64,000 nt of DNA from a virus. The notes below the pieces were generated by a model. The model worked only from the letters and a program-made list of their open reading frames with translations. It was not told where the DNA came from and searched no databases. Made by a program: the position numbers and the translations under genes. The stretch's first letter is position 1; each line of letters begins with the position of its first letter. Shown here piece by piece: positions 8,581 through 59,713 of the stretch. Location of the stretch: IMG/VR virus record IMGVR_UViG_3300027804_003127; one strand, written 5' to 3'.

Positions 8581-8622
8581 TTCAGGTAGAAAGATAAGTT
8601 AAAAAAGCAAATAGGAGTAAAC

Positions 8623-17000: not shown

Positions 17001-17352
17001 TTATAATGTTAATACTTCGCTTGCAATCAAGACAACAGGATCTTTATTTTCTTGGGGAGTAAATACTAGTGGACAGTTAGGTTTAGGCAATACTACAAGT
17101 AGATCTTCGCCTGTACAAGTAGGCGCTGACACTAACTGGAATTATGCATTTGCTGGCACTAATAATCAAATTGCTTTAAAAACTTCTGGATCTATGTGGG
17201 GATGTGGGTCTAATTTATATGGAGTTGCATTAGGTTTTTTAAATAACAATTTGTCTTCACCAGTACAGATAGGATCTGATACTAATTGGAGTTCAATTGC
17301 TACTCAAGGTATATCTAGCTTTACTCTTGGAATAACCGAAAACATATCATAG
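14080..17352 (+). CDS. RCC1/BLIP-II repeat beta-propeller protein (21 repeats), probable receptor-binding adhesin
   Basis: 21 copies of [32 protein letters not shown]; start ATG overlaps the upstream TAA (TAATG). Confidence 0.9.
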
Positions 17353-24925: not shown

Positions 24926-25309
24926 GTGGAATATTTATATCATATTTTAATACCTAAAAATTTTGCAGAAAAAGTGAATGATTGCTTTAAAAACATTAGC
25001 AATTGTATAGATTCTCCATTTAAGTATAAAATATCAACTAGAATAAATGGAGATCACAGTTATACTGGTGCGTATGGTCTTTCTGAGGATGACATAAAAA
25101 TATTTAGAGTTATGTTTGAGCTTAATGAAGATGGGATTTATTGGTGGAAAGTAGATAAAAATACGGGCATATTAGATGAGTGTAATGACGCTGACTGTTT
25201 ATGCTATGTAGGTGACAAGTATTCTATGAAGTTTTTATTAAGAAGGTCTGGTTTCTATTTAATCGGAGAAAATGATGGCGAAAGCTGGTCGTCCAAAAAA
25301 ACCGAATGA
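24926..25309 (+). CDS. Hypothetical protein
   Basis: ORF in operon context. Confidence 0.55.
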   Translation: MEYLYHILIPKNFAEKVNDCFKNISNCIDSPFKYKISTRINGDHSYTGAYGLSEDDIKIFRVMFELNEDGIYWWKVDKNTGILDECNDADCLCYVGDKYSMKFLLRRSGFYLIGENDGESWSSKKTE

Positions 25310-32464: not shown

Positions 32465-33064
32465 ATGATGACGGAATTGATAAAAAATATTCTTTTTACA
32501 GCACAGAGTTTAGAGGTAAAGGGTCTTAGTAAGTATGCTTCTCAGTTAGACTCAATAGCTGAAAGCTTTATCTTGATCAAGCAGGCCCAATATGACGGCG
32601 TTCAAGGATATTGGATAAGAAACGGAAGATGTTTTGATAATTGTTATAGGCAAAAAAGATCTAGTAATCCTAAGAAAAGCGCTCAAGAAATATGGTCTGA
32701 ATGTCATTCTGAATGGCAAGATTCTATAATGAATAAGTCATCAGAATGGGACAAATATGCTGATGCTAGTGAAAATATGTTAAAGATTGCCTCTACTGAG
32801 AGTGTTAAAAATTCTGATTATGTGATGAACGATGAAATATCTTCTAAGATAGAGTCTGGCATGAGTGTTGCTGACGCAGTTCCTATGACCATAGCTGAAA
32901 GAATTTTTAGTCTTCCTTGGAAGTTGGCTCAGATAAGTAATCAGATTTCAGACATTTCAATAGATTTAAGTGAAAAAGATCCAGCTATATCTGAAAGACT
33001 ATATGAACTTGCTGAGAATATAAGGCAAGAAAGCTTAGATAATTATAAGGACTGTTTGATTTAA
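32465..33064 (+). CDS. Putative internal head protein
   Basis: Five K-x-A motifs (SKYASQ, IKQAQ, DKYAD, LKIAS, WKLAQ). Confidence 0.65.
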   Translation: MMTELIKNILFTAQSLEVKGLSKYASQLDSIAESFILIKQAQYDGVQGYWIRNGRCFDNCYRQKRSSNPKKSAQEIWSECHSEWQDSIMNKSSEWDKYADASENMLKIASTESVKNSDYVMNDEISSKIESGMSVADAVPMTIAERIFSLPWKLAQISNQISDISIDLSEKDPAISERLYELAENIRQESLDNYKDCLI

Positions 33065-36409: not shown

Positions 36410-38644
36410 ATGGCAAAAAAAAGTGAATCGTCATCAGCGGGCGTAGAAAAGCAAGTTGTGTCTGACTCTAGTGTATATGACAAGAAATACGCTTCTTCGT
36501 CAGCGGTTAATTTGCCCTTGACAAAAGCAGCTCAGTACGTAGGTGGTAGTGCTTCTACGATATTCACTCAGCCAATGTTTTTCTCTCCTTTGCATACGCC
36601 GCAAAACTGGCAGATCGCTAGTAAAAGAAAAGAAGTTTATCAATGGGCTAGGTTTTATTATGAAAACGAGCCCAAGGCGGCAGCTGGTATAGATTTTTAT
36701 GCTGGCTTTCCAATGAATGGATTTTCATTAGAATGCAAAGATAGAAAGATATTGACATTTTATGAACATCTAGTAGAAAAGCTGAATCTTGATTATTGGT
36801 TAAGAAAAATAAGTCATGAATATTTTCTTCTAGGAGATGTTTTTGTATTTTCAGAAATATCATGTCCTGTGTGCAACGGTATTGGCAATTTGCCAAATGG
36901 TGACATATGCAACCATCCAGACGGAACAATAAAAAGATTACTCGTATTAAATCCAGACTTTATAGAAGTTCAAAGCACTCAGCTTGCAGATGAACCTACT
37001 GTTGCCTTAATACCTGATGACGATTTAAAAAGAATAATATCTCAAAAGAAGCCACTAAATGTTTATGAAAGAATACCAAATAGTATTAAGGAATTGGTAT
37101 CTTCTGGTAGGCCAATTCCTCTTAGCCCAAGATGCGTAAGTCATTTAAGACACAAAGGCTCTCCGTATGGCACTTATGGAGAAAGCTTATTGCGTAGGTT
37201 GTTTACGATTATATCATATAAAACAAAACTCATGACGGCAAACTGGATAATGGCTGAAAGGCACATATTGCCAGTAAGAATAGCAAAAGTTGGAAGTGCT
37301 GAACGTCCTGCCTCTGAATTTGACATAGCAGATGTTCAGGGGCAATTAGCTGCGGTTGCTAACGATCCTAATTTAACTATAGTCACACACCATGCTTTTG
37401 AAATGGACTTTGTAGGAGCTACAGGAAAGATACATGACATATCTAATCAAATGGAGATGATTGGAAAAGAGATGTTAGATGGAATGATGCTTAATCAAAC
37501 TTTACTAAACGGCGAAATGCAAGGATATAGTGGAGCTGCTGTTGGTGTAGAAACTTTGATAAGAAGACTTGAGACGTGGAGGTTAGAACTTGCTGACTGG
37601 GTAGAAAAGAATGTTTTTTTACCAGTAGCTCAAATGCAAGGTTTTGTAGATGTCGCTAAAAGCAAGTTGATAAACGAAACTATTTATTTATATCCTAAAA
37701 TAAAATGGAATGATTTAAGACTTAGAGATAACAGTCAGAATTTAAATATGCTAATTCAGCTTCATGATAAAGGTTTGATATCAACTCAAAAATTATTATC
37801 AGAATTTAACATAGATTATGATCAGGAAATAAACAGACTAAGAGAAGAGCAGATTACTGCAGGCAAGGGTGGCCAAGTGTCAGGTCCTGCATCAATGGGT
37901 GAAGGAATGGGCGGAGGTATGGATTTGGGAATGGGAGGCGGCGGTATGCCTCCAGGGCTTTCTGGACCTCCAATGGACGCTGGCATGGGAGCTGCAGCTA
38001 TGCCTGCAACTCCAGAGGCTGGCGCTAGCGTTGCGCCTCCGTCAATGCCTCCAGCGCCAGCAGGCCCAGTCGCATCTTCGAATGATTTTGTTAAAACAGC
38101 GCAATTTGGATATGGTGGTCAAATTCAGCAAGCGCCAGATAAAGTATATAAAAAAGGCAAGGAGCCAAAGAAGAAAGATGACACAGGAGATGTACAGACT
38201 AAGCAAATTTTTTTAACAAAACCTGAGCAAAAATTATACAAGATTATACAAAATCTTAATTTACCATTAAGGCTCTTTGCTCAGTATGAGCAAAAAGTTC
38301 CAGGTGTGCAAAATGCATATTTGCTAGATTTTGCTTTACCAGAAATTTTATTAGATTTAGAAGCTGATGGAGATTTTTGGCATTCTGACGCAGAGTCTGT
38401 TCAGAGAGATAAAGAGAGGGATATGAAGTTGGCTTCTCTGGGTTGGACAATAGTAAGGCTAAGAGAGAGTGCTTTAAACAGTCAGGCTGATTCCGTAACT
38501 GAAATAATAAAGAACAGCATTAGAGAAGCTATTGCTAGAAGAAAGGCCATGATGACTAAAAAGGCAAATAGTCAAGAAGACACTTACGAGATAGAAGAGA
38601 TTGAAGACGATTACTCTATAATAATAAAACCTTCTAATATTTAA
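36410..38644 (+). CDS. Portal protein with Gly/Met/Pro linker and C-terminal DUF559/Vsr-like PD-(D/E)xK domain
   Basis: Lies between terminase and protease. ARFYY.NEP...GIDFY..FP, EYFLLGDVF, PYGTYG.S.L.R; C-terminal YLLDFAL...LEADGDFWH.......RDKERD..L..LGWTIVRL.E. Confidence 0.82.
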   Translation: MAKKSESSSAGVEKQVVSDSSVYDKKYASSSAVNLPLTKAAQYVGGSASTIFTQPMFFSPLHTPQNWQIASKRKEVYQWARFYYENEPKAAAGIDFYAGFPMNGFSLECKDRKILTFYEHLVEKLNLDYWLRKISHEYFLLGDVFVFSEISCPVCNGIGNLPNGDICNHPDGTIKRLLVLNPDFIEVQSTQLADEPTVALIPDDDLKRIISQKKPLNVYERIPNSIKELVSSGRPIPLSPRCVSHLRHKGSPYGTYGESLLRRLFTIISYKTKLMTANWIMAERHILPVRIAKVGSAERPASEFDIADVQGQLAAVANDPNLTIVTHHAFEMDFVGATGKIHDISNQMEMIGKEMLDGMMLNQTLLNGEMQGYSGAAVGVETLIRRLETWRLELADWVEKNVFLPVAQMQGFVDVAKSKLINETIYLYPKIKWNDLRLRDNSQNLNMLIQLHDKGLISTQKLLSEFNIDYDQEINRLREEQITAGKGGQVSGPASMGEGMGGGMDLGMGGGGMPPGLSGPPMDAGMGAAAMPATPEAGASVAPPSMPPAPAGPVASSNDFVKTAQFGYGGQIQQAPDKVYKKGKEPKKKDDTGDVQTKQIFLTKPEQKLYKIIQNLNLPLRLFAQYEQKVPGVQNAYLLDFALPEILLDLEADGDFWHSDAESVQRDKERDMKLASLGWTIVRLRESALNSQADSVTEIIKNSIREAIARRKAMMTKKANSQEDTYEIEEIEDDYSIIIKPSNI

Positions 38645-39120: not shown

Positions 39121-42100
39121 ATGAATAAAGTAACAATAACAAATCAAAGATCAGTAGAGCCATTAAATATCCCTTCTAACTGGGATGAAATTAACATTAA
39201 GTCTATTTCTAAATTTGCATCAACAGGTAAATCTTTTGAGGAAAGAGTTTCTGGGATGGATCTTGGCGGATTCGATATCTTACAAGCTGTTAAGGACAAT
39301 CCAGATCATTTATTTGTGAAAGTTTTTGCTATAAAAAAGGATGAAGTTAATGATAATGGTGACTATTTTTCAGAAGATGAACTTAAAAAGGCAGCAAAGA
39401 CATTTATAGGCGTACCTGTATTTGTCAATCACCAAAATGATGATATAGAAAAAGCTAGGGGGAAAGTAGTCCATGCTTGGTGGGATAGTGATCGTGGTGG
39501 CATATATACTATAAACATGGTTGATAAAGTTGCTTATCCCAGATTGGCTAGAGGCATAGAAGCTGGTTATGTTACTGGTAGTAGTATGGGGTGTAGTGTT
39601 AAATTTAGCTGTTGCAGTATTTGTCACAATAGAGCGGCTAATGCCAAGGAATACTGTTCACATATTAAAGAAAGAAAAAAGAAAAATTATAATGGGGAGC
39701 AAGAATGTCAGTACCATAAAAGTTCAGGATCAGGAAAAGAGCCATGTCCTGTGTGCGGATGTGAAAAAGGTGATAAGAAAATGCACAAGCATGCTGGTAC
39801 TATGGTATTTGAACATAACTTTGGAGTTAAATTTATAGAGGATTCATTTGTAGTAAATCCAGCATGTCACGATTGTTTGGTAAGCGATGTTATTAATCCA
39901 AGTGGTTTGCTGAAGAAAGTTGCTAATTTGCGTGAAACAATAAATAAGATAAGCGCAAATGTAGAAAATGAGCAAGCTTTTGGTTTTGAATGTTCTACTG
40001 GATCTTGCAGTCTTCATAAGGCAGCAGGAAAACAGGAAATAGGCGAGTTAAATTACGCCATGAATCAGTTAGAAAGAGTTGCTCGTTCTATGATGGCGCA
40101 AAAAAATAAAGTAAGCTTAGAGTATGTTTCTGATATAATAAAAGTTACTGCAGATATTCAAAAAATATCAGATGAATTAGTGGAAATGGGATATGCTGGG
40201 CTTCCTAGTCCAACTGAGAGTCAAATAGCATTTGGCACTAATGTTGCAGCCAGTCCAACTTCTCCTGCGACTCCAGCCACTCAGGTTCCTGTGACTGCTA
40301 TGCCTCAGCCTTCTTACGCCCCACAGGCTAGCACTCAGCCTAGTTTTTCTAGAAACGTGTCTCCCATGTTAAAAAATATCCCATCAGGAAATATTAATCC
40401 AGTCATATCGGATTTAGGAGATGATATTGGCAGAGTAACAAAACCTAGTTTTGTGCCAGTATCTGCAAATTCTATAAAGGATTTTGTTAAAATATCTAAT
40501 AGTATACAAAATAGGCTCTCATCCCTTATGAGTGCTATGTATCTTAATGGAGAATCAATGAAAGAAAAATCAGCATATAAATACTCAGAAGGCGATGATT
40601 CTATCGTTATACAGTCTGATAGTGATGGTGAAATTCATGTTGCCTATTTGGTTGGAGACAGGCTTCTAAAATGGGCTAGCGCAGACACATTTAGTGAAGA
40701 AATAAACACATTAATTCATAACGATCCAGAATCAGCAGCCAGTATGATTCTGTCTTCTTTTAAAAACGTAAACAATTCTGATCACATAAATATAGAGGAG
40801 TCAAAATTAGCTATGGAAAATAATAAAATTAATAAAGTTGCGCAGGCTCGTGCAAATGCTGAGACAGATGTTGTGACCGAGGCTCAGCTTAATTCCGTAA
40901 AAGGCATACATTCTCGCAAGGGTGATTCTTATTCTGCTACAACGGAAAGCTCTGAACAGCTTGGTGCTAAAAAGTCTTACAGCGACGTGGGTGGCACCTC
41001 TGCAACTCCTCGTCAAGATTCTCCATATGAAACTATAATAGAAGAAACTCTTAATTCTAAAAAGGGCGGATATATGGCCCGTTGGGGATCTTTTCCTGAA
41101 GTTGTAACTGAAGCTCAATGGACTGATGCTTCTAGAGAAGTATTTGCCAATATCCCAGGAGACTGGACATCTGTCTCTCAGGGAGCTCAATTAGATATGT
41201 TAAGAAAAACATTTAGCTGGAATGAGCCTAATGTTACTACAGAAGCTCAGCTTGGTGGAGTAAAGAGTAAAACCGCATCTGCACAGGAACTTATTAAGCA
41301 GGCGCAGTCAGCTCTTGCTGATGCAATGGCTTTTTACGGAATAGGCGTAGACGACATAAAAAACTCTATTAAATTTATAAATTCTGATTTTTCACGTCAG
41401 AATAAGGCAAAATGCTTGGCAGCTATAAATGCAGCTCCTTGGGCTGTTTCTGCTAGACAAGTAAATAATAATAGACTTGCTTCTTTTTCTAAAGTTGCAT
41501 CTGAGGTATATGGCATTGAGCCAATAGATGCACTTTTGGCAGCAATTGGTGATAATATGGGCAAGTCTTCTGCTGGAGATTTAATTGATGCAGTATCTTT
41601 TGTGGCTAATAATAAAGTAGCTATGCAGCAAGTAGAGGAAATAGCTGTAGAAAAAGTAGAAAACGCCTCTTTTGAAGATTCTTCTAATGAAGAAATTTTC
41701 CGTAAAGCATTCAGCGAGATGTCTTTGCCAGAAGATGGCATGATTAAGGTTTGTATGTCTGCTGAAGACGATTTAGGGATGGAAGTATCTTCTGATAAGT
41801 CATTTGTTGATGCAGTTCATAAATATGCTCAATCTGTTGTAAACGATAATTTTGGCAAAGAAGTAGATATAGTTCCAGTGGCTGTTGATGTTGATGAAGA
41901 AAATGGTCTTGTAGAAGCAACTTGCAAATTAGCTTCACATTTAACAAAAGAAGAAAAAAGCGCTTTTGAAAAATGGGCTTCATCAGAAGAATTAAATATA
42001 GAAGAAGACTCTTATGAAATTGCTGACTATAATGGTGCTGAAAATAATGCTTCAGAAAAGAGGGCATCTCTTTTACGTGAGTTAGATTCTTTAGAAAAGA

Positions 42101-44871
42101 AGGCTCAACTTGCTGGTGGACAGATGCCAGCTGGTCTTAATCCAGCTGGCATGGGTATGGGCGCTCAGCTTCCAGGTGGTGCACCTCCAGCTGGAGCTCC
42201 TGGAGTTGAAGCTTTAACAACAGGTGGAGCAGCTGATCCTGCAATGGCTGGAATGGACCCAGCTGCCGCTGGTGCCGATCCTCTTGCTGGTGGAGATGTA
42301 GGTATGGAAGAAGAAACTAAAGCCAAGCCACCAGCTGCAGTATGTGTTGTGTGTGGCAATAATGACGTTGACGTTCAGGGTGGAAAGAGTAAGTGCAATG
42401 GTCCAGGCTGTGGTTTAGGTTACACTATTAAGATAGTGCCTGATGCAACTTTATTGGATAAAATTAGTGACGGAGATATAGATCAAGAAGATGCCACTGA
42501 AGAGCCTGGTGCTGAATCTCCAGAAAAAGGCTTAGGTGGAATGTCGTCTGCTCCTGCTGAAGGAGCTGTACCAGGAGCAATGCCTGGCGGTATGGCTGTA
42601 GCAGCTTCTACTCGTATAACTCCAGATATTATGAGAAAGTTCGCATCTAATGGAAGTTTGGGAAGTATTAGTCCAATAACAGGAACAAGGAATACAATTC
42701 AGATAGATAATGAAAATTGGCAATGCCTTGATAGTGGTCAGGTTTATAAAGTAAGATTAGCGGCTTCGACTAAGAGCCCAAAAGAGGTTTGGGCTCAGTG
42801 GGAGTGGGAACCAGTGATGAAGTCTGCTAATTGTTCTCCATGTAGAAGGCGCAAGAATGCTATAATTCGTGCGCTAAGCAGTATAGGAGTAAGTGAAGAC
42901 CAGTTTGACGGCATGAGTATGCTTGATAAGGCGGCAGCTCTTAGTAAAATAAATGCATCTGGATTATTAAGAAATATAAAAGAAGCATCATCTCAGAACG
43001 TTTCGGTAAGAGATTCAATTAAGCAAGCCTTCTCTGTAAGAGGCGAGTTCCCAATGAATACATGCTTGGAAAAACTTGCACGCCGTTACGGGGAAAACGC
43101 TTTGGCTTTAAGCGGTCCATGTGAGGGTCAAAATCTTGCAAACTGCGTGTGTGGCTCTTTGGCCGAAGAGGGTGTCTATACTACGAATCTTGCAACTAAA
43201 GTTGCTTCTGCATGGGCGTCTAGAGATCCTATGATGGAGTGTGTAGAAGACTACATACGTGAAGGACTGAGTTTAAGTAAATCAGCTCAGGCATGTGAGG
43301 ATTTGAAGTCTAAATACATCACTTCCGAAGAAGTTTTCGCAGATGAAATAACAGAATCTTACGTAAAGTCTGCACAAGAAGAAGAGGTTTTTGAAGGCGA
43401 AGAAAATCCATTTGATTCTGAGGATAGTGAAGACTCAGATGGAGGAGAAGAAGTGGACCTTACATTTAATTTTGATGAAAATGATTTAACAGACGCTGAT
43501 GATGAATCAATGTTTGATGGCGCAGAAGAAGATTCTGATGATGAAGGTTTTGATTTAGAAATAAGCGACGACGACATGGGCGACGACGACATGGGCGACG
43601 ACGACATGGGCGACGACGACATGGGCGACGACGACATGGGTGACGACGACATGGGTGACGACGACATGGGCGGCGACGACATGGGTGACGACGACATAGG
43701 TGACGACGACATGGGTGACGACGACATGGGTGACGACGACATGGGTGACGACATGGGTAATTTAAACAAGGAGGAAGTCACGATGGAGAAAGAGAACGAA
43801 ATGGTAAAGCAATCTCCAGAGTCTAAGCTCGCTCAAATATATTCTGAAGCAGAGTCTCTAAAGAGAGGTAGAATAGTTGGCGTCAATAAACTTAATATTG
43901 ATATCAATTCAATAAAGCGCGCTTTGCATAAAGAAGCTAGCGATAAAAAGTTAAGCCCAATAAGTGCTCAGGATACAGTTAAGGGAGTTGCTAATGGCAA
44001 ACCTCATGCGGATAGTACTCAAGAAGGTTTTGATGCAGAAACCCCAGAAGTTCCTACATCTGGAGAGGGAATGAAGGACTTAGATCTTCCCTCCATCCCA
44101 GCAGGCGGAGGAAAATTTAAGGGCGAGGAGAATTATGACGCAGAAATGCAGGAAAATATAACAGGAGGACAGAGCGGTCAGGGGGCTGAGCACACAGGAA
44201 AGTATCGTAAGAGTGCTTTTGAAAAAGCGCTTTCAAAGCTTGCGACAAAATTAAATAGGGTTAATGTTCAAGATGACAAAGACATAGGTCCTATAGGTAA
44301 GGAAGATCCAGGTGACGCTTTTGAGGTTCCAACAAATGGAGGTAAGCCTCTTTCTTCAGAGACTAATGAAGGATTTGACGTAGATGGTCCTGATGTTCCT
44401 ACTGGAAGTGCTGAGATGGGGCAAGAAAAAGAATTAGGTTATACTGCAGAAAAACAAACAGAAATGACTGGTGGAAACGCTGGTGCAGGTTCTGTAGAGT
44501 CTGTAGGAAAATATAAAGGTAAGAAGGCCAATGAAAATGGTAATGAAGTTGCTATAAAGTTAGCTGGCAGAATGCTTGAGGCTGGTTTAATTAAGTCTGA
44601 GCAGCTGTCCGCCAAGTTAGCAGAGTTAAAGAGATATGAAGTATCTCAGCTCCGTGATTTAGAGAAAGCAATGTTCACAAAGTCCAATTTCAACAAAGGT
44701 CTTAAGGTTGCGTCGAGTGGAGTTGAGCAGCCACTCGTAATCAGTGAAGTAAGTAGTCAGAAAAATGCTTCTACTGATCTGAAAAGTAAAATAGCATCTC
44801 TGTTCCGACTTCAACAGCAGGTCGAGTTGGCGCAGGAGAGCGAGGCTACTAAGTTAAGAGCTTTTAAGTGA
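39121..44871 (+). CDS. Prohead (capsid maturation) protease - scaffold polyprotein
   Basis: HK97-type protease signature NDNGDYF...FIGVPVFVNH...ARGKV...TGSSMG followed by CxxC zinc sites; long acidic/low-complexity C-terminal part; directly upstream of the decoration and capsid genes. Confidence 0.8.
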   Translation: MNKVTITNQRSVEPLNIPSNWDEINIKSISKFASTGKSFEERVSGMDLGGFDILQAVKDNPDHLFVKVFAIKKDEVNDNGDYFSEDELKKAAKTFIGVPVFVNHQNDDIEKARGKVVHAWWDSDRGGIYTINMVDKVAYPRLARGIEAGYVTGSSMGCSVKFSCCSICHNRAANAKEYCSHIKERKKKNYNGEQECQYHKSSGSGKEPCPVCGCEKGDKKMHKHAGTMVFEHNFGVKFIEDSFVVNPACHDCLVSDVINPSGLLKKVANLRETINKISANVENEQAFGFECSTGSCSLHKAAGKQEIGELNYAMNQLERVARSMMAQKNKVSLEYVSDIIKVTADIQKISDELVEMGYAGLPSPTESQIAFGTNVAASPTSPATPATQVPVTAMPQPSYAPQASTQPSFSRNVSPMLKNIPSGNINPVISDLGDDIGRVTKPSFVPVSANSIKDFVKISNSIQNRLSSLMSAMYLNGESMKEKSAYKYSEGDDSIVIQSDSDGEIHVAYLVGDRLLKWASADTFSEEINTLIHNDPESAASMILSSFKNVNNSDHINIEESKLAMENNKINKVAQARANAETDVVTEAQLNSVKGIHSRKGDSYSATTESSEQLGAKKSYSDVGGTSATPRQDSPYETIIEETLNSKKGGYMARWGSFPEVVTEAQWTDASREVFANIPGDWTSVSQGAQLDMLRKTFSWNEPNVTTEAQLGGVKSKTASAQELIKQAQSALADAMAFYGIGVDDIKNSIKFINSDFSRQNKAKCLAAINAAPWAVSARQVNNNRLASFSKVASEVYGIEPIDALLAAIGDNMGKSSAGDLIDAVSFVANNKVAMQQVEEIAVEKVENASFEDSSNEEIFRKAFSEMSLPEDGMIKVCMSAEDDLGMEVSSDKSFVDAVHKYAQSVVNDNFGKEVDIVPVAVDVDEENGLVEATCKLASHLTKEEKSAFEKWASSEELNIEEDSYEIADYNGAENNASEKRASLLRELDSLEKKAQLAGGQMPAGLNPAGMGMGAQLPGGAPPAGAPGVEALTTGGAADPAMAGMDPAAAGADPLAGGDVGMEEETKAKPPAAVCVVCGNNDVDVQGGKSKCNGPGCGLGYTIKIVPDATLLDKISDGDIDQEDATEEPGAESPEKGLGGMSSAPAEGAVPGAMPGGMAVAASTRITPDIMRKFASNGSLGSISPITGTRNTIQIDNENWQCLDSGQVYKVRLAASTKSPKEVWAQWEWEPVMKSANCSPCRRRKNAIIRALSSIGVSEDQFDGMSMLDKAAALSKINASGLLRNIKEASSQNVSVRDSIKQAFSVRGEFPMNTCLEKLARRYGENALALSGPCEGQNLANCVCGSLAEEGVYTTNLATKVASAWASRDPMMECVEDYIREGLSLSKSAQACEDLKSKYITSEEVFADEITESYVKSAQEEEVFEGEENPFDSEDSEDSDGGEEVDLTFNFDENDLTDADDESMFDGAEEDSDDEGFDLEISDDDMGDDDMGDDDMGDDDMGDDDMGDDDMGDDDMGGDDMGDDDIGDDDMGDDDMGDDDMGDDMGNLNKEEVTMEKENEMVKQSPESKLAQIYSEAESLKRGRIVGVNKLNIDINSIKRALHKEASDKKLSPISAQDTVKGVANGKPHADSTQEGFDAETPEVPTSGEGMKDLDLPSIPAGGGKFKGEENYDAEMQENITGGQSGQGAEHTGKYRKSAFEKALSKLATKLNRVNVQDDKDIGPIGKEDPGDAFEVPTNGGKPLSSETNEGFDVDGPDVPTGSAEMGQEKELGYTAEKQTEMTGGNAGAGSVESVGKYKGKKANENGNEVAIKLAGRMLEAGLIKSEQLSAKLAELKRYEVSQLRDLEKAMFTKSNFNKGLKVASSGVEQPLVISEVSSQKNASTDLKSKIASLFRLQQQVELAQESEATKLRAFK
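43567..43758 (+). repeat. 15-nt coding tandem repeat (DDDMG x13)
   Basis: GACGACGACATGGG[C/T] units. Confidence 0.95.
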
Positions 44872-45538: not shown

Positions 45539-46411
45539 ATGTCTATAAATAAAGATGGTTTGACTTATGACGAGAAAGAGGCAGTTATTGCCCAGGCTCT
45601 CGCAACAGAGGAGGGACGTACAGCCCTCGCTCAGGCAATGGTTGAGCCCATTCGCCGTTCTTTAGAGTATCAGGCTGTAGGCCGCAAGCTTCTCATGGTC
45701 GATGAGCTTCCTCAGGGCGCTCTTCCTCGCTATGAGCGTGACGTTGCTTCTACAGCAACCGTAATAGCCCGTCAGGGTGCTGTTCCTGATCAGATTCAGG
45801 AAGGCGAAGAAGTCCTTGTCCCAACATTCGAAATTGCTGCTCACCCAACAATTCGTTTGTCTGAGATCAAGGCTCGTCGCTTCTACATTGTAGATCGCGC
45901 TCAGATCAAGGCAAAAGAGGCTATTCAGAAGGAAGAGGATCGCAACATATTCTCAGCTCTTATAGCAGCTGCAGATAATCGTGCAGATCAGGTTGTTGGT
46001 AATACTGGCGATCTCACCACCGATTCTCTTAACGTAGCATATCGTTTGATTGAGACTCACGATCTTGTCGCAAGCAAGGTTGTTGCTCACCCACTCCAGT
46101 ATGCTCGTTTCCGCGTTTTCGGTAAGACTTTCTATGATGAGGCTACTACTCGTGAGATCCTCACAACTGGTCTTTACGGTCACTTGTGGACTGCAGACAT
46201 CCATGTCAGCTCTCAGCTTGATGCTCAGACTGTATTGGTTTGCTCTTCTCCCGACACTGTCGGTGCATTCCCAATCCGTCAGGACATCACAGTTCTTCCC
46301 GCTGACGATCCAAAGAAGCTTCGTCTCGGTTGGGTAATTTATGAAGAGGTAGGTATTGTTGTTATGAACGACTATGCTATCTCTAAGATTGAAGTTTACC
46401 GCGCATCCTAA
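45539..46411 (+). CDS. Major capsid protein (HK97 fold)
   Basis: LAQAMVEPIRRSLEYQAVGRKLLMVDELPQGA, VPTFEIA.HP.I, AIQKEED, LGWVIYEEVG; strong highly-expressed codon bias; followed by a terminator. Confidence 0.88.
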   Translation: MSINKDGLTYDEKEAVIAQALATEEGRTALAQAMVEPIRRSLEYQAVGRKLLMVDELPQGALPRYERDVASTATVIARQGAVPDQIQEGEEVLVPTFEIAAHPTIRLSEIKARRFYIVDRAQIKAKEAIQKEEDRNIFSALIAAADNRADQVVGNTGDLTTDSLNVAYRLIETHDLVASKVVAHPLQYARFRVFGKTFYDEATTREILTTGLYGHLWTADIHVSSQLDAQTVLVCSSPDTVGAFPIRQDITVLPADDPKKLRLGWVIYEEVGIVVMNDYAISKIEVYRAS

Positions 46412-46440: not shown

Positions 46441-46475
46441 GGACCCGCTCCTAGAAATGGGAGCGGGTTCTTTTA
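46441..46475. terminator. Rho-independent terminator after the capsid gene (between convergent genes)
   Basis: GACCCGCTCC-tagaaatg-GGAGCGGGTT followed by CTTTT. Confidence 0.85.
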
Positions 46476-47360
46476 TTTGTCTAGTATGTTAACAATCTCA
46501 ATAAAATGCTTTTTCATATCAATAGCATTTGTGACAGAAGTTGTAGATTCTTCACTAAGCCAAGCCGAGGCATACCTTTGCATTCGTTCTATCTGACCAA
46601 TGGTGAAAGTCTTATTTCCCAAGGTTGAATACGACATTATGTTAAATCTATTTTTATCTTTTTCAGTACCATACTCAATTGGAGAAATTGCATCAGACGG
46701 GGTATCTTCTACATAGTCATCTTTTTCATTAAACGTGTGTAGTAGTCCGAAGTGATGTCCCATTTCATGGGATAAAACTTGTTTTGCATTAGTTGGTCCA
46801 TGTATCCATATGCATCCATCTGTAGAGTGGTGAATTTCTGCAAGACCATCTATTCCTAATCCTATATTAAATCTATAATAGATTTCAATTGAATCTTTTT
46901 TAGAGTTTTCTTTTTGAGGATGACCTATTATCTGAGTTATTATTCCATCTCTCGTTGCAATATTTAAAGCTTCATGTGCAATTGTATTATTTTTTTCGTA
47001 AGGTATTTCATTTAGTGAAATTGTTACATATTTTATATAAAATTGAATATGTGCAGGTTTGAAGTCTTTATTTAAAACAATCAGATCATTTTCTATATTT
47101 TCTATTGTTCTAGAGAAAAATCGTTCGTATTTTCCTTCAGGGTTTTTTCTTTGAACGCATGATAAATGTATATTAAGTGCAAAATAAATCGTGTTATTTT
47201 CAGACCATTTGTCAAGCATTTCTTTTGATTTTTTCATCCAAAGCAACGGAGAATTTGTTTTTATATCCTGCTTAGTTTCAAATGTATTTGCTAATGATTT
47301 ATATGCTAATAAGTTTACGATTGCCAATAAAATAGCAAAACGCGATTTATTCATATACAT
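46473..47360 (-). CDS. Secreted metzincin zinc metalloprotease (M43/pappalysin-like)
   Basis: Signal-peptide-like N-terminus; HEMGHHFGLLHTF; D.VEDTP; Met-turn NIMSY; FT.GQ.ERM. Confidence 0.8.
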   Translation of the reverse strand: MYMNKSRFAILLAIVNLLAYKSLANTFETKQDIKTNSPLLWMKKSKEMLDKWSENNTIYFALNIHLSCVQRKNPEGKYERFFSRTIENIENDLIVLNKDFKPAHIQFYIKYVTISLNEIPYEKNNTIAHEALNIATRDGIITQIIGHPQKENSKKDSIEIYYRFNIGLGIDGLAEIHHSTDGCIWIHGPTNAKQVLSHEMGHHFGLLHTFNEKDDYVEDTPSDAISPIEYGTEKDKNRFNIMSYSTLGNKTFTIGQIERMQRYASAWLSEESTTSVTNAIDMKKHFIEIVNILDK

Positions 47361-47403: not shown

Positions 47404-48636
47404 TTAAATATAATTTGATGAGTATGCATTATAATTTTGTAAAATTTCTGCAGAAGTCAATGCCCTATCATAAATTTTTATAGAACCTATATAGGCATCA
47501 AGAAAATAGTTTGAATTTGTTGCCACATCATCCCATCGTCTGCAAATTCTTAATTTGCCTCCAGATTGAGGACTTGCAGTTATACTTCCAGTTGCAAACG
47601 ATGATGTATTTACATAAAGAGTTATTGTAGATCCATTATATGTTCCAACAAGATGTGTCCAGCTTGTAGTGTTTGGAGTGTATCCAGACGATGTGTTTCT
47701 CCATGCTCCATCAAAAAAACCAGCATATATGTTAGCATTTGTTGGCTGCAGGTTTGTGCCTAAAGAAAAGTTTAATTTGCTTAATCCGTCATATTCTCCT
47801 GTGATAACAGTTGTTACATTACTAGCATTTGGTATTGTTTTAAATTTAACCCATACTTCTGCAGTCCATCTATTTAAGTCTGGAAGATTGGAGTCGCTCA
47901 ATCCATACTGTAGACTCGATTTTGTAAAGTTCAAAATACCTCCATTGGTTGAACTAAATGAAGGAGAATTGTATAAAGTTACAGTTCTATTATTGCCACT
48001 TAAATCATATAATTTATTTCCACTTCCTGGATATGAAGCAGTGTCACCAGGATCTAGGTTTACTACAAGCCCAGATGTGACTATGTTATATTCTTTGTCT
48101 ATAAGTGCTATTGGAGAAAATCCGTCATCATATTCTCCGCACAAAAGCATTTTATTTCCAAACATAAACTTCTTAAAAGCTTTTGGCTGTTGTGTGGTTA
48201 TTGTAATTGCCAAGGAGTCGTCTTCATCAAGTATCCATTGCATGCCAGAATAGTCTGTAAAATTATTTACTGGAGTAGATGAAATGTCAGTTAATCTTTG
48301 TATGTGCATTATATAATCATTTTCGCCATTAGTTACTACTTGTATTGAGCACCCATTAAGGCAAGTAGTTGACACAATATTTTCAAATGTCCCATTAAGT
48401 CCAGAAATTGCATTAATATCTATTATTCTGAGAGCAGATCTTCCATTGTTCATTTTATCAACATACATTGGTATTCCGCCAATATAGTATCTACCAGTTG
48501 AATAAGGATTGTCTGAAGTTACGCTGCACGTAAGTTTTTTGAAATTATCACTGATACTGTCAAGTGTTCTTATTTTAGAAGAACCTAGCATCATGTGTCC
48601 TTTTGTAAATAAGGAGTTGTCGTATGTATATGGCAT
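47404..48636 (-). CDS. LamG / concanavalin A-like lectin domain virion protein
   Basis: IVTSGLVVNLD.G..SYPGSG...YDLSGN, WTHLVGTY.G...LYVN, IYDRALT..EILQNY; likely start MPYTY at 48636. Confidence 0.8.
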   Translation of the reverse strand: MPYTYDNSLFTKGHMMLGSSKIRTLDSISDNFKKLTCSVTSDNPYSTGRYYIGGIPMYVDKMNNGRSALRIIDINAISGLNGTFENIVSTTCLNGCSIQVVTNGENDYIMHIQRLTDISSTPVNNFTDYSGMQWILDEDDSLAITITTQQPKAFKKFMFGNKMLLCGEYDDGFSPIALIDKEYNIVTSGLVVNLDPGDTASYPGSGNKLYDLSGNNRTVTLYNSPSFSSTNGGILNFTKSSLQYGLSDSNLPDLNRWTAEVWVKFKTIPNASNVTTVITGEYDGLSKLNFSLGTNLQPTNANIYAGFFDGAWRNTSSGYTPNTTSWTHLVGTYNGSTITLYVNTSSFATGSITASPQSGGKLRICRRWDDVATNSNYFLDAYIGSIKIYDRALTSAEILQNYNAYSSNYI

Positions 48637-48702
48637 ATATAATATATTTAAAATAAGGTTTTTATATCCTTTATTTCGAAACATACAAAAAAGAGCAATA
48701 AC

Positions 48703-50283
48703 ATGAATTGGTACAAGATAGCTAAAAACGAAAACATTCAAATAAAATTAACTCCAAACGAGACTTCTATCTTTAATTTAATTAAAGAAGCAAGGAACGA
48801 ACTTGCTCCAGGCGTGCAATTAAGAATAGCAGGGGGATGGGTTAGAGATAGATTGCTTAACAAGATATCTGATGACATAGATATTGCAGTCACTGGTGGA
48901 GATGGTACAGCTATCGCAAATGCTGTAAGACAATATGATCTTAAAAAAAATAAAGGATCTAGGACTGAGGATCCTTATTCTGTTAGTTTAGAAAAAGGAA
49001 TTGAAGGTCAAGGTGGTAAGAGTGAGGGGCTAAAGGTAGGTGCTGTTTCTATTGATGGTATAAAAGTAGAATTTGTGCCTATGAGAAAAGAAAGTTATAC
49101 AAGAGATAGCCGAGTACCGTCTATAGTTGCAACAGATGATCCTAAAGATGATGTTTTGCGTAGAGATTTGACGATTAATGCCATATACTACAATGTAGAC
49201 ACAAATGAAATTGAAGATTATGTTGGGGGGATCAGCGATCTTAATAATGGTGTTATTAAAACTCCTAATAATCCTATTGTTACTTTAACCGAAGATCCGT
49301 TAAGAGCAATGAGAGCTCTTAGATTCCTTTCTCAAATGAAAGGATTTAGGATGGATCCTAGTCTCATGGAGGCAATGGGATCAAATGAAGTTCATGATGC
49401 ATATAGGGCAAAGGTTGCTCCAGAGAGGGTGAGAAAAGAACTAGAAAAGCTTGTATTAGGTACAAATCCAGCAGATGCAGTTAGAATACTATTCGCTTCA
49501 GGTCTTTATCTGCCAGTTTTTAATTCTCAAAGGATGAGTGGTTTTAACCACATATCAATGGATCAAGGAAATCCGCATCATGCATACAACCTTTTAGAGC
49601 ATACTGTTAATGTTGTTAAAAACCTAAACGACATGCTTATTACATCGAATGCTTCTGATAGAGAGAGAATGATTGCTGTTCTTGCTGCTATCTTTCACGA
49701 TTTTGGCAAGATGGACCCATCTATAGTTAGACCTAGTAAGACTAATCCAGGAGCCTTGTCGTACCCAGGACACGAAGATGTTTCTGCAGATATAGTAGAA
49801 GACGCTTTAAAGAGAATCGGATTCGGAAACGAAAGATTTTTAGTGCAAAAAATAGTTAAAGAGCACATGCGTCCTCATGGAGAAATGCAAACACCAAAAA
49901 GTATAGGTAAGTTTTTAAGAGAATTTGAATCCATGAAGATATCTGATGATTTGAAAGAACGATTATGGAAGCTCACATATATGCATGCGATAGCTGATTC
50001 TATGAGCAAGGGAGCAGTCGATTATCATGATGACGTTAAACATAAGGAAGAATCAATTAAGACAATAGAGGATTTTATCTCTCAGCAAGCTGCTACTGGT
50101 AAAAAGCCATTATTGGATGGTAGAGAGATAATGTCGTTATTTCCAGATATAAATCCTAAAACGGGTTTTATAAGCAAAATGCAAGAAGCTTTATTACAAG
50201 CACAAGATGAAGGAAAAGTCATAGATAAAAATTCAGCGCAAAAATTCCTTACAGATAATAAAAGTAGTTTGTTGACGATATAA
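48703..50283 (+). CDS. cca: CCA tRNA nucleotidyltransferase with HD domain
   Basis: GGWVRD..DDIDI, RKESY..DSRVP loop, RRDLTINA, EDPLR..RALRF, H...H...FHDFGK HD domain; N-terminal MNWYKIA leader. Confidence 0.88.
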   Translation: MNWYKIAKNENIQIKLTPNETSIFNLIKEARNELAPGVQLRIAGGWVRDRLLNKISDDIDIAVTGGDGTAIANAVRQYDLKKNKGSRTEDPYSVSLEKGIEGQGGKSEGLKVGAVSIDGIKVEFVPMRKESYTRDSRVPSIVATDDPKDDVLRRDLTINAIYYNVDTNEIEDYVGGISDLNNGVIKTPNNPIVTLTEDPLRAMRALRFLSQMKGFRMDPSLMEAMGSNEVHDAYRAKVAPERVRKELEKLVLGTNPADAVRILFASGLYLPVFNSQRMSGFNHISMDQGNPHHAYNLLEHTVNVVKNLNDMLITSNASDRERMIAVLAAIFHDFGKMDPSIVRPSKTNPGALSYPGHEDVSADIVEDALKRIGFGNERFLVQKIVKEHMRPHGEMQTPKSIGKFLREFESMKISDDLKERLWKLTYMHAIADSMSKGAVDYHDDVKHKEESIKTIEDFISQQAATGKKPLLDGREIMSLFPDINPKTGFISKMQEALLQAQDEGKVIDKNSAQKFLTDNKSSLLTI

Positions 50284-52207: not shown

Positions 52208-52911
52208 TAAACATATTAATTTCATTACCTCAATTAGAATGGTCTTGTTTTTTATTATCTCATATAAAGCAATGTATTCTAAAAAAATATAGTAACATAA
52301 ATAAGATAGATGTTATTTCAAAAAATATTATGGATGAGGATATGTTTCCTCATGTAATAAATGAAAGTTGTATAATAGGCATGTTAGACTTAAAAGATGC
52401 TTATGATTATGTATATAATTTTGATTCAGATATTTTGATAGATAAAATTCTTTCTAAGAAATATGGAAAAGTCATTAATTTACAAAATTGCATATACGGA
52501 GATGAAAATATATGGAACAATATATCTAATTTCTTTTCTGTAAATATTGATGAGCCAAAGTTTAAATTTAATATTGTTAATAGGACAAGATTAAACAAAG
52601 CAGAATCTGGAGTAGCGATTAAAAACAATCATTTAAGGTCTTATGTTAAAAAATCATTTTTTGTAGATAATTCTAGATTGTGGCATGTTCCAGTGAGAAA
52701 AAATTTATACAAAAGATTTGACGAATGTAATACAGTTTCTAACCTGGTAACAGATGATATATTTTGTGCATTATCTGGGTATGCTCAAAATAAAAAAGTA
52801 GTGTTTTTAAATTTATATGAAGAGTATTATAATATAAGTTGTGGAGAAAATCTATACATACAGGGTGTAGGGGATTATTTTAAATGGAAGCAAAGTTGCA
52901 TAGAAAGTTAA
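52204..52911 (+). CDS. Hypothetical protein, possibly a degenerate GT9-like fold
   Basis: C..LVTDD....LS....KKVVFL tail. Confidence 0.45.
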   Translation: MINILISLPQLEWSCFLLSHIKQCILKKYSNINKIDVISKNIMDEDMFPHVINESCIIGMLDLKDAYDYVYNFDSDILIDKILSKKYGKVINLQNCIYGDENIWNNISNFFSVNIDEPKFKFNIVNRTRLNKAESGVAIKNNHLRSYVKKSFFVDNSRLWHVPVRKNLYKRFDECNTVSNLVTDDIFCALSGYAQNKKVVFLNLYEEYYNISCGENLYIQGVGDYFKWKQSCIES

Positions 52912-53714
52912 ATAAATCTAAATCGGTTAAAAATTTAAAAGAACCTGTTAGATATATTCCCGATATGTTTGGATTTGATATTCCAAACTATAACCCATCT
53001 GATATTACCATAGCTATTCTAGACACTGGTATTCCTTCTCATTTTGATATTAATTATAAAGAAGAAGACAATAAAAATTCTTGCATTGATTTGTTATTAA
53101 ATAAATGTGAAATTAAGGACATAAATGGACACGCAACTATAATATCAGGAATATTATGCGGATCTAATCCTAGTGGTGTCATGGGCATGTGTCCGTCTGC
53201 AAAATATATGTTTTGCAAGATAATGAACGATGATGGTCTTGGTGATACTAGCAATATAACTGCTGGTCTTTTATGGGCTATGTGTCAAAAGTTTGATATA
53301 TTATTGCTATCAAGTGGTTCTCCGATTGATGATAGATATATGAAAAAAGTAATTGACAAATGTTATGCAATGAACAAAATAATTATAGTAGCCAGCGGAA
53401 AAGAGATAACTAAAAATTCTAAGAGTCTTTTTCCTGCAGGATATGATGGAGTAATAAGTTGTAGTTCTGCTAGAAAAAACTCTGCTAAATATTTACCTCA
53501 AAATAAAAGAATGGAAATAGATTTATCATTCAATAGCATATGGTCAACATTTACTGATGATACATATATAAAATCTGGGGGTAGTAGCGTTGCTGCCGCA
53601 ATAGTTTGCGGTGCTGCAGCTAATTTTTTGCATTATTTGAAAAGTAAAGATCACAATTGGGAAACAGCTTCAGATTTTATGAAGTTGTTTTCAGAAAAAA
53701 TAAGAAATCAATAA
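52884..53714 (+). CDS. Subtilisin-like (S8) serine protease
   Basis: IAILDTG, NGHAT.ISG, SGGSSVAAA.V.G. Confidence 0.8.
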   Translation: MEAKLHRKLNKSKSVKNLKEPVRYIPDMFGFDIPNYNPSDITIAILDTGIPSHFDINYKEEDNKNSCIDLLLNKCEIKDINGHATIISGILCGSNPSGVMGMCPSAKYMFCKIMNDDGLGDTSNITAGLLWAMCQKFDILLLSSGSPIDDRYMKKVIDKCYAMNKIIIVASGKEITKNSKSLFPAGYDGVISCSSARKNSAKYLPQNKRMEIDLSFNSIWSTFTDDTYIKSGGSSVAAAIVCGAAANFLHYLKSKDHNWETASDFMKLFSEKIRNQ

Positions 53715-57016: not shown

Positions 57017-59713
57017 ATGTTTAATTTGACTAAATTGGCTCAATCATTGAAGGAGATGACACCTGATCAACTTATAGCAAGAGCAAATGCTATAAAAGAT
57101 TTTAATACCCCAGAGGGTAAGGCGCTCATTGATGAAATATCGTTAAGGTCTTCTAAAGATAGAAAACTGTCTAATTTTTTATTTAATACATTAGCTGATA
57201 GGCTTGCTGCTCCTGCAACTGAAACTGAAGAGCAAGAGTATCGAGATAGAATGTCTTCTGATGCATCTGGTGCGCGCAATCAGATTATGCAATTAATGAA
57301 TGAAATAAATTTAGTTTCGTATAATTTATTAAATAAAGTAGTTGGTCAATTTCAGACTCTTCCACCACAGATTAGGGCGTGCCGCTCTAGATTTATAAAC
57401 AGGTTTACATCTAAATATAATTTCGATGAAAATGCTTTTGGTGGTAAAAAGACTTATGGTCAATGGTTTTCTGACAGACTAGCGGATACTCGTTTAAGGG
57501 AAAATTTATTTAACAAATATGATTTTATTAGTCCTAGTTCACAAATTCTGAGATACTATGCTGAATTAGATTTTTACAGTAAAGGTGAGTATTTAAAAGG
57601 TAATCTTGGAGAAGATGTGTCAAAAGTTGTTTCAGAATATTATTTGCCACATATTTCTGGTCTAGACCCTGATAATTCTGATCCTCAACTTTTTAGAAAT
57701 CGTATAAATGCACGCAAATACGAACATTCTGCCTTGCAATACAGGCATATGCCTTTGCATGCTCACGAAATTGATGGTGAATTTCTTATAATAAAGGTAA
57801 TGAAACATTTTTTAGAAAGCTTAAAAGCAGAAAAGCAAGAGGCTGTTTGTTTTGCTTTAGATAAGTTTGCTTATAATATTAATTATGATGTTAAGGTTCG
57901 TGAATATCAGGAAAAGCATTTTCAAAATTCAGAAAGTGATACTGGATTTGGCGCTACAAAAGCTAATTTAAACTATTTAAAAAGCAATTCATTCAGATAT
58001 GTATTAGCTCCTAATTCTATTGGAATAGCTATGGCGGAGCTCGATAGGTTAGAGGCAGAAGAATACAAGAGCATAGATAAACTTAATTCTAAATTACCAG
58101 ACGGAGATTCTCCAGCTAAAAAATACATTGAAAAAATTAAAACTGAGTTAAGTGAATGTATAATGGAAGCGCGTCATTGGTTTCAGAATATACAGAAATG
58201 GCATGAGCTTCAAAGTAGCTCCTATATTGAATCAAATAACTCTATCAATTTTTTAGAAATAGCACTTAATCATAGAGCTACTTCTACTGGCGTTCATGGT
58301 CAAGGAGGAGTTGATGGTTCTGTTCAAAAAGGCACTTGGTCGCCAATTAAATTTAGCAAAGACAGCATAGAGGTAAGGGTTTACTTTCAAGCTACAGGAC
58401 AAATTGTAAATAAATTTTACGAATATATGTCAGATGATGATTACAATCATCCTATGGAATATAAGTTAGAAGATAAAGTTGAAATATATCCTGTTTCGAT
58501 CAAAGCAAAAGTTCCCCAATCATTATCTATTACATGCATAGAATGTGACCCATCTTTTAATCCAGAAGCAAGAAAAGAAAGTCTAATGGTTAGTCAAGCT
58601 GACTCTGTACTAAGTCAAATTGAATCTACTGATAAATATTCTAAATTGAGAGACTTGGGACAAATTTTGAAAGCAGGTAAAATACCGTATTTTGGATTGA
58701 AATCTATTCCATCTTTATCTGATGAAGAAGCCGCAAATCTAAAAGATCAAATAATAGAATTATTTAGTAAAAATCCTGATTATATTTTTGATATAATTAA
58801 ATCTTTTAAAGAACAAAAGGTTAAGATGCCTCAAATCCCTTCATCTTATTCTTTTGAAGATAGATCTTGGTCTGGTCAGGAAACAGAGGGAGCATTTAGG
58901 GAGTTAGCTATAGTTAGGTCAATACTTCATGATATTGAGATTAGATATAAATATGCAGTTAGGCATATTAGTAAAGATATAGGTTTAACTGAGGAAGCTT
59001 TTGAGTGCTACGACACAATAGGCTCTATTGCTATAAGCTCTAAAATATCTGAGCTAGATAAGTCTATAAATTATTTGAATAAATCCGATCCTAATAATGA
59101 TAAGATATCTGAAGTTAAAAAGATGAAAGAAAAATTTGTAGAGCTTAAAAAATTTATGGATTCCATATTCTCTAATTATCAAAAGACTGGTTGGATGTCT
59201 GCTGGAATGTCTTCTCCAGATGATATTTATGTTGATCCTACTTGGCTTGTTTTAGCCATTCAAAAAGATAAAGCCTCCAAAGTTTTTGTTGATCCTGCAG
59301 AAATAGAAAATATCATAGAAGGTCACTTAAGAAATTTAAACAATAATGAAATTTTTGATTTAGGAGCACTTCTAAAAATTATTAATCTTGCTTCTCTCCA
59401 GAAAGGCAAGGTACAATTAAATGAAGCAGGAAAGATGATAGGAGATGCGGTCAAAAATGCTAAAACACTAGGGGTTTTGTCAAATGAAGAGGCGTCTTAT
59501 ATAAGCAATATTTTTCCCTCGTTTAAAGCAGGTTCTGATGGAGATTCATATATGATTGCATCTGGTATGGACAAAACATCTTATATAAATTCTGCACAAG
59601 GCATAAATAAATACTCATATAATTTAAGTGATTTTTCACAAGAGCCATCTATGAATTATTCAATAAACGATTGGATCAAGTTTGTTGCAAGAAGGGCATA
59701 CATTGGAAAGTAA
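57017..59713 (+). CDS. Large hypothetical protein with MFNLTKLAQ leader (putative internal virion protein)
   Basis: GAGGT RBS; 898-aa ORF; leader shared with head-region proteins. Confidence 0.7.
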   Translation: MFNLTKLAQSLKEMTPDQLIARANAIKDFNTPEGKALIDEISLRSSKDRKLSNFLFNTLADRLAAPATETEEQEYRDRMSSDASGARNQIMQLMNEINLVSYNLLNKVVGQFQTLPPQIRACRSRFINRFTSKYNFDENAFGGKKTYGQWFSDRLADTRLRENLFNKYDFISPSSQILRYYAELDFYSKGEYLKGNLGEDVSKVVSEYYLPHISGLDPDNSDPQLFRNRINARKYEHSALQYRHMPLHAHEIDGEFLIIKVMKHFLESLKAEKQEAVCFALDKFAYNINYDVKVREYQEKHFQNSESDTGFGATKANLNYLKSNSFRYVLAPNSIGIAMAELDRLEAEEYKSIDKLNSKLPDGDSPAKKYIEKIKTELSECIMEARHWFQNIQKWHELQSSSYIESNNSINFLEIALNHRATSTGVHGQGGVDGSVQKGTWSPIKFSKDSIEVRVYFQATGQIVNKFYEYMSDDDYNHPMEYKLEDKVEIYPVSIKAKVPQSLSITCIECDPSFNPEARKESLMVSQADSVLSQIESTDKYSKLRDLGQILKAGKIPYFGLKSIPSLSDEEAANLKDQIIELFSKNPDYIFDIIKSFKEQKVKMPQIPSSYSFEDRSWSGQETEGAFRELAIVRSILHDIEIRYKYAVRHISKDIGLTEEAFECYDTIGSIAISSKISELDKSINYLNKSDPNNDKISEVKKMKEKFVELKKFMDSIFSNYQKTGWMSAGMSSPDDIYVDPTWLVLAIQKDKASKVFVDPAEIENIIEGHLRNLNNNEIFDLGALLKIINLASLQKGKVQLNEAGKMIGDAVKNAKTLGVLSNEEASYISNIFPSFKAGSDGDSYMIASGMDKTSYINSAQGINKYSYNLSDFSQEPSMNYSINDWIKFVARRAYIGK

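Follow-up and report, generated by a model that had tools for sequence, protein, structure and literature searches.

The DNA considered here is a stretch of 64,000 nucleotides from the IMG/VR virus record IMGVR_UViG_3300027804_003127 (the window). It is phage DNA with 34.8% guanine plus cytosine (GC), without a close relative among deposited phages, and the phage contig is about 245-250 kilobases (kb) long. The gene in question encodes protein P0001, an enzyme of the family that adds CCA to the 3′ end of transfer RNA (tRNA), and the element in question is the short leader with which this enzyme begins, MNWYKIAK. This leader is a lineage-wide, virus-only N-terminal tag, which occurs beyond chance. 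The features of the gene are as follows (window coordinates; lengths in amino acids, aa):

48703..50283, + strand: P0001 gene, 526-aa class II CCA-adding tRNA nucleotidyltransferase with HD domain (open reading frame, Pfam, PHROGs, fold)
48703..48726, + strand: N-terminal tag MNWYKIAK with K5-I6-A7 (translation, model confidence, homologue comparison)
48820..49257, + strand: nucleotidyltransferase head domain, residues 40-185, motifs GGWVRD...DIDIA and RRD (Pfam)
49342..49521, + strand: PolyA_pol RNA-binding (neck/body) region, residues 214-273 (Pfam)
49594..49887, + strand: HD phosphohydrolase domain, residues 298-395, with H300 and H332-D333 invariant and D432 beyond the domain (Pfam, alignment)

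The CCA enzyme and its leader

The open reading frame (ORF) of P0001 is intact: it starts with ATG, and the 18 codons back to the upstream stop hold no in-frame start codon. Pfam recognizes the PolyA_pol head (PF01743, expectation value (E) 1.1e-24) and the RNA-binding region (E 1.5e-7), both over the cut-off, and the HD domain (PF01966, E 1.8e-8, 35.1 bits against a cut-off of 22); PHROGs gives phrog_2244, tRNA nucleotidyltransferase (4e-49). Throughout 38 aligned homologues the class II motifs GGWxRD...DxD (G44-D60), RRD (153-155) and DPLR (198-201) are unvarying, including the single residues G44, G45, R48, D49, D58 and D60 of motif A, and so are the metal-binding residues of the HD domain (H300, H332-D333, D432). 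The AlphaFold model has a mean predicted local distance difference test (pLDDT) of 89.9 and a predicted template modelling score (pTM) of 0.85; its best Foldseek match is the Arabidopsis CCA-adding enzyme 9kma (template modelling (TM) score 0.70, E 2.5e-20), and the top 46 matches are class II enzymes throughout. Thus, domain searches, invariant motifs and predicted structure agree with the first-pass annotation, which had named a complete class II CCA nucleotidyltransferase with HD domain, and this assignment is almost certainly correct.

P0001 is like the bacterial enzymes of the E. coli Cca type (NF008137, TIGR02692) and the CCA enzymes of jumbo phages (PMC7824862) in having head, neck/body and HD domain with their catalytic and metal-binding residues, whereas it differs from them in the viral tag, in its head, which by sequence is nearest to eukaryote-type enzymes (S. 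pombe Cca2, 4.5e-44), and in its scores, which fall far short of all the NCBIfam equivalog cut-offs (best TIGR02692, 159.1 bits against 438.8). P0001 belongs to a divergent viral clade; the family is secure, but neither the exact product name nor the nucleotide specificity (CCA, CC or A) is.

The N-terminus of P0001 reads MNWYKIAKNEN, and K5 precedes G44 by exactly 39 residues. In the AlphaFold model residues 1-10 have a pLDDT below 50, the sole low-confidence stretch at the N-terminal end, and the first helix comprises residues 18-34; as modelled, the leader is a flexible appendage separate from the enzyme fold. The description of MNWYKIAK as a leader that ends in K-x-A ahead of the catalytic domain therefore stands, in that the peptide lies outside the fold, where the model has low confidence, and is common to unrelated proteins.

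Homologues of P0001, taken from the 120 best homologue clusters, have a short or a long form. Of 51 short homologues, 28 begin x-W-[YF], 37-45 residues (mostly 37-42) ahead of GGW; other short homologues have different leaders, yet carry R-[FY]-A-Q at the same spot before GGW. A further 69 homologues are longer (about 630-915 aa), with an extra N-terminal domain of 130-320 aa, for which there was no Pfam match and no useful Atlas match. Here [KR]-x-[AS]-Q stands 36-40 residues (mode 39) ahead of GGW in 45 of the 69, where 0.024 would be expected per interval scanned, and this junction motif is often preceded by FNLKK. Because its distance to GGW is the same in the tag and at the junction of the long forms, K-x-A looks like a processing site; in these alignments the element behaves like a conserved seam, with the enzyme on one side of it and an N-terminal part that varies on the other. 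Possibly, the long homologues are polyproteins or have long propeptides. The equivalence of the 8-aa tag and the junction site of the long homologues appears to be newly seen for a CCA enzyme. The long forms are found in P0036-P0119, for example L005 about 8000-11314 (852 aa, IMGVR_UViG_3300024259_002152) and L168:8001-10703; one long homologue comes from a viral contig of 350 kb, on which there are tagged genes and 31 tRNAs as well.

The tag on other proteins and the protease-scaffold

In this genome, 118 kb were searched, including 45 kb walked upstream on the same contig, and seven ORFs of 166-729 aa, one of them P0001, have (M/x)[NT]WYK-x-[AS] at their start. The other tagged N-termini are MNWYKWAQ (729 aa), MNWYKCAQ (288 aa), MNWYKIAQ (166 aa), MTWYKKAQ (232 aa), MHKNWYKLSQ (a LysM protein of 329 aa) and MIINWYKQAQ (176 aa). 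As a control, the reversed motif was sought over six frames of the same 118 kb and gave two matches, none of them at an ORF start. The first-pass annotation had proposed a survey of related phages for the leader on unrelated enzymes, and there it was found: five related IMG/VR records hold 15 copies of ATGAAYTGGTWYAAR, which is MNW[YF]K at the DNA level, on unrelated ORFs, whereas the reversed control gave 0. Five huge-phage genomes of 296-548 kb, all near-complete, hold 26 copies of the MNW[YF]K pattern, again with 0 for the control. A scan of IMG/VR for MNWYKxAQ yielded 42 distinct ORFs, which are unvarying only within the tag and of which 41 have it at the true N-terminus; the bodies behind it include Tad6, an AAA_33 kinase, cREC_REC, GNAT, a methyltransferase, SLT and a second PolyA_pol, among others. 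The synonymous codons of the tag differ among the ORFs, and therefore selection acts on the peptide. No shared motif was found upstream of the 42 tagged genes.

Cellular CCA genes, in which the leader, if present, would have refuted the proposal of the same annotation, were surveyed with one genome per species in 185,579 prokaryote species: the tag is on none of the 80 best loci out of more than 574, and the best cellular identity is at most 41%. MNWYK is not mentioned in the relevant literature searched. That the tag is a functional peptide shared by these proteins is very likely.

Copies of the tag have also been seen away from the N-terminus. On the same contig upstream (ena:ERZ27247881:k141_2133017), an AAA_33 kinase ORF has MNWYKSAK 46 residues before its end and a 1305-aa helicase has GWYKLAQ 17 residues before its end, the two C-terminal copies being at about 16578 (+) and 19388 (-) (L184, L185); a tagged IMG/VR protein of 1235 aa (L147) has an internal SWYKQAQ at residue 638. 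There may be a second type of leader, FNLxK, in the window: MFNLNKIIK (28354), MAAFNIKKYSQ (35196) and MFNLTKLAQ (57017), all on the + strand, the last of which opens an orphan protein listed below. This second leader is a lead only, because the number of N-terminal K.[AS][QSK] among the 62 genes of the window is not significantly above chance (3 against 1.2-2.4 expected).

The end of the tag has a counterpart within the proteins of the head. The following genes are concerned:

39121..44871, + strand: prohead protease-scaffold polyprotein P0121, 1916 aa; 21 K-x-A-[S/Q] against 1.84 expected
39121..39990, + strand: assemblin-fold protease domain of P0121, residues 1-290 (fold, invariant H104 and S155)
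36410..38644, + strand: portal protein; 4 K-x-A-[S/Q] against 0.43 expected, including sites at residues 26 and 39
32465..33064, + strand: 199-aa head-module protein, candidate internal or scaffold protein; five K-x-A-[S/Q] against 0.24 expected
52884..53714, + strand: subtilase (Peptidase_S8), a second phage protease (Pfam)

In none of 300 shuffles does P0121 reach 21 copies of K-x-A-[S/Q], and in an unbiased scan K.AQ and K.AS were the most enriched non-repeat gapped motifs of this protein. Enrichment is general among its relatives: 105 giant homologues hold 911 copies against 168 expected (5.4-fold), and 86 of them are more than 3-fold enriched. No enrichment was found in tail, glycosyltransferase or other enzyme genes. 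The K-x-A core of the tag matches this enriched motif of scaffold and portal, which would fit trimming after KIA.

The N-terminal 290 residues of P0121 were modelled (pLDDT 84.5), and the fold matches the varicella-zoster virus protease 1vzv (Z 10.8, 114 aa, 2.4 Å) and T4 gp21 (5jbl; Z 10.2, 128 aa); the top 37 structure matches are herpesvirus assemblins and members of the T4 gp21 family only. H104 and S155, which do not vary in 42 sequences, would be the catalytic residues. In herpesviruses, the assemblin is fused to the scaffold (pUL26) and releases itself by cuts after Ala, at YLQA-T and VQA-S (PMC4498786). P0121 likewise has a conserved K31-x-A33-S ahead of the protease domain and KKVA after it, at about residue 265. 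The likeness is one of fold and motif only: there are two sites in pUL26 as against about 20 in P0121, and no cargo-tag system is known in herpesviruses. All five near-complete genomes that bear the tag encode one giant protease-scaffold. Taken together, K-x-A is probably a protease site. A predicted complex of this domain (A3 residues 36-285) and the N-terminal 40 residues of P0001 scored 0.00, which is no evidence either way.

The scaffold part of P0121 also has a highly acidic tandem repeat, DDDMG, in about 13 copies (window about 43480-43730, +). The S8 subtilase lies about 8 kb downstream of the protease-scaffold gene in the window and within about 12-20 kb of it in G006 and G007 (S8 positions G006:300105, G007:93921, G009:527166 and G010:277047); with respect to the CCA gene it is 2.6 kb downstream here, and on a contig of 498 kb (L168) some 4 kb separate it from the gene of the long form.

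The genome around the CCA gene

Other features of the window that bear on the setting of the gene are:

25272-28352, + strand: large terminase, unusually long (1026 aa, about 470 extra N-terminal residues)
45539..46411, + strand: major capsid protein of the HK97 fold family, with 52% identity to gp27 of Bacillus phage G
46441..46470, no strand: strong terminator-like hairpin after the capsid gene, 13-base-pair (bp) stem with 8 GC pairs
46473-47360, - strand: M43/reprolysin-like metallopeptidase with signal peptide, between the capsid and CCA genes
47404-48636, - strand: LamG-domain protein, likely start 48636
48637..48702, no strand: AT-rich divergent intergenic region of 66 bp between the LamG and CCA genes, no assignable promoter
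57017..59713, + strand: 898-aa orphan starting MFNLTKLAQS, with K-L-A-Q at residues 6-9, possibly a second leader

After the CCA gene come, in this order, a glycosyltransferase, the S8 subtilase, PhoH, the 898-aa orphan and an actin-like protein; beyond the window are a tail tube gene and a gene for a 3558-aa protein. Thus, the gene does lie in the structural region, as had been stated in the first-pass annotation, between the head module (portal, protease-scaffold, capsid) and the tail genes. The late promoter that was said to precede it is unconfirmed, because promoter-like sites are at chance level: there are 21 sigma-70-like sites against 20.4 expected, and none is in the 66-bp spacer.

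The 52% identity of the capsid protein to gp27 and the 33% identity of the P0121 protease domain to gp19 make Bacillus phage G the nearest cultivated relative. The two closest metagenomic relatives (L001 and L002) have capsid proteins 95-98% identical to that of the window, and in both the CCA gene follows directly after the capsid gene on the same strand, a gene order that speaks for the packaging reading given below; the metallopeptidase is missing at the corresponding place.

No tRNA genes were found in the window. Relatives have arrays of 31, 16 and 7 tRNA genes (L170 = G005:327500-338300; L171; L172 = G004), and 46 of 47 examined tRNA genes of relatives lack an encoded 3′ CCA.

Three further observations concern neighbouring proteins. 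The actin-like protein (60489-61544, +; Pfam Volactin 3.3e-56) lies between the head and tail genes. Residues 603-734 of the portal ORF (38216-38611, +) form a DUF559/MTES_1575-type endonuclease-like domain, which could be a fused or inserted nuclease. In the tail region there is an 1102-aa protein of RCC1-like repeats (14044-17352, +).

What the tag may do

The reading that is tentatively favoured is one of packaging and delivery: the tagged CCA enzyme would be loaded into the head, trimmed there and injected. As a whole, its chance falls a little short of even. According to this reading, the MNWY-K-x-A tag most likely brings the enzyme into the prohead, where the assemblin-type prohead protease, itself fused to a giant scaffold with about 20 such sites, would most likely cut the K-x-A core after Ala; the trimmed enzyme would remain inside the head and reach the next cell together with the DNA. 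The class II head of P0001 would add or restore CCA, and the HD domain would be able to clear 2′,3′-cyclic or 3′ phosphates, so that from the first minute in the next cell the enzyme could finish the CCA-less tRNAs of the phage and mend tRNA 3′ ends. The parts of this reading that we infer are the biological target and the steps of cleavage, packaging and injection.

The head-loading role of the tag is suggested by analogy to the T4 capsid targeting sequence (CTS) and to the propeptides of phiKZ and SPN3US. The CTS is an N-terminal peptide of 10-20 residues on unrelated head-content proteins (IPI-III, Alt, gp24), and it ends in the cutting motif of the protease (Mullaney and Black 1996, as described in PMC5694885). 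Both systems have a shared N-terminal peptide on unrelated proteins and proteases of like fold (T4 gp21, Z 10.2), and the T4 cargo includes enzymes delivered to the next host. The T4 prohead cutting motif ends in Glu, whereas the motif here is K-x-A-[S/Q], the lineage is phage G-like and the cargo set is far larger, comprising mostly accessory enzymes. In phiKZ-like phages, the prohead protease (gp245/gp175) removes propeptides from SPN3US gp53/gp54 and gp47 and from the beta subunit of the 201phi2-1 virion RNA polymerase (PMC5694885, PMC10052503); these propeptides are either short (13-20 aa) or long (>100, up to 275 aa), with several cutting sites (PMC5694885), which parallels the 8-aa tag and the 200-300-aa N-domain on CCA-HD homologues. 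The differences are that the phiKZ-like motif is A/S/G-x-E, that no single strict tag extends over dozens of families and that the protease is not fused to a giant scaffold. What resembles the T4 and phiKZ systems is the logic and the fold of the protease; sequence and motif are unlike.

Several points weigh against packaging and delivery. In P0001 and its nearest relatives the Ala is followed by K, N, A, D or G instead of the usual S or Q (in P0001 itself by K), and because of this the cleavage of P0001 is less certain than that of the MNWYKxAQ proteins. Internal K.A[QS] is not depleted in the tagged cargos (3 against 3.3 expected), whereas depletion would be expected if cargos must survive the protease. 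In a single-sequence search no P0121-like protease was found on the fragmentary tag-bearing contigs G003-G005, and the S8 subtilase, which is kept in four of five tag-bearing huge phages, could be the processing enzyme instead. In the window, the terminator hairpin and the two opposite-strand genes part the CCA gene from the capsid gene. The CCA enzyme of phage G is of another type and is untagged. Finally, to mature CCA-less phage tRNAs a cytoplasmic enzyme is needed, and no packaging is required.

If the tag is a head-loading label, huge phages own a programmable cargo system, in which a very short, strictly conserved peptide selects the enzymes that travel with the DNA; among the cargo so far are tRNA/RNA repair enzymes, a Thoeris inhibitor, kinases, acetyltransferases and a lysozyme-like protein. 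The idea of the T4 CTS would be extended to a different, very large phage clade, tRNA repair would join the pre-packaged counter-defences, and there would be a handle for packaging foreign proteins. A fuller version of this is possible but on the whole improbable: MNWY-K-x-A would be a portable head-load-and-trim label, by which the tRNA-repair enzyme and counter-defence enzymes pre-empt tRNA-directed defences and finish tRNAs before phage genes are expressed, and in other lineages K-x-A-Q would join the enzyme to a carrier domain of 200-300 aa. The first-pass annotation had likewise suggested an injected enzyme that repairs tRNAs damaged by host toxins, the link to such toxins being conjectural. 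If only the cleavage is true, K-x-A-[S/Q] would still tell where the members of a large family of assemblin-scaffold polyproteins cut.

Of the alternatives, the one that survives best, itself unlikely, is that the tag serves for processing alone, as a propeptide or cutting site. The assemblin or the S8 subtilase would cut K-x-A in the cytoplasm and so release or activate the enzyme, which would act unpackaged on CCA-less tRNAs; in the long homologues, the same cut would part two domains of a polyprotein. The junction motif, whose place is the same in 45 of the 69 long homologues, is polyprotein-like and suits this alternative, as do the lack of CCA in 46 of the relatives' 47 tRNA genes and the S8 subtilase, near the CCA gene here and found in four of five tag-bearing genomes; CCA enzymes are, moreover, common, unpackaged RNA-repair genes of jumbo phages (PMC7824862). 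However, processing in the cytoplasm leaves the strict MNWY prefix on dozens of unrelated proteins unexplained, many different enzymes are unlikely all to be activated by the loss of seven residues at a flexible terminus, and the motif is concentrated in scaffold and portal, i.e., inside the prohead.

It is still less likely that the tag is some other address or control signal: a degron, a peptide by which a phage chaperone or partner docks, or an address for some compartment besides the capsid. N-W-Y-K followed by a hydrophobic residue presumably resembles the N-terminal recognition motifs of ClpX. The tag is short, flexible and N-terminal, most of the tagged proteins are accessory or counter-defence enzymes, for which control of dose or lifetime might be needed, and the phage encodes an actin-like protein. 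Phage G encodes ClpXP-like proteases (PMC12484599). Yet residues five to eight of the tag match the scaffold and portal motif, not the hydrophobic ClpX position; complete tag-bearing genomes always carry the protease-scaffold; and a terminal degron leaves the internal K-x-A-Q at the domain junction unexplained.

The last alternative, that the leader is an ordinary N-terminus, functionless or intrinsic to the enzyme, or a nucleotide-level signal such as a translation start context, is largely refuted and very improbable: an AT-rich context of the start codon could favour initiation, and N-terminal K.[AS][QSK] in the genes of the window is at chance, but the same peptide stands on unrelated proteins with differing synonymous codons, is missing from cellular homologues and lies outside the predicted fold.

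For the packaging and delivery reading, phage G is of interest as the cultivated phage. Its particles contain many enzymes, and leaders or N-termini are not mentioned in the account of them (PMC12484599). MNWYK does not occur in the phage G genome, in which the concentration of K.A[QS] is no more than mild. The N-termini of about ten phage G proteins are (M/L/V)KRLIKK[AS]-like, and KRLI is the commonest N-terminal 4-mer (6 occurrences, others at most 3). This KRLIKK[AS] leader looks as if it were the phage G lineage's own version of the MNWYK tag, and such a shared leader in a cultivated phage makes the idea testable at the bench. The KRLI ORFs of phage G (NC_023719.1; L107-L133) start at 11937, 16055, 28218, 73330, 147651, 178671(-), 254625, 388147 and 446697, and two of the KRLI-led proteins carry an HGT motif.

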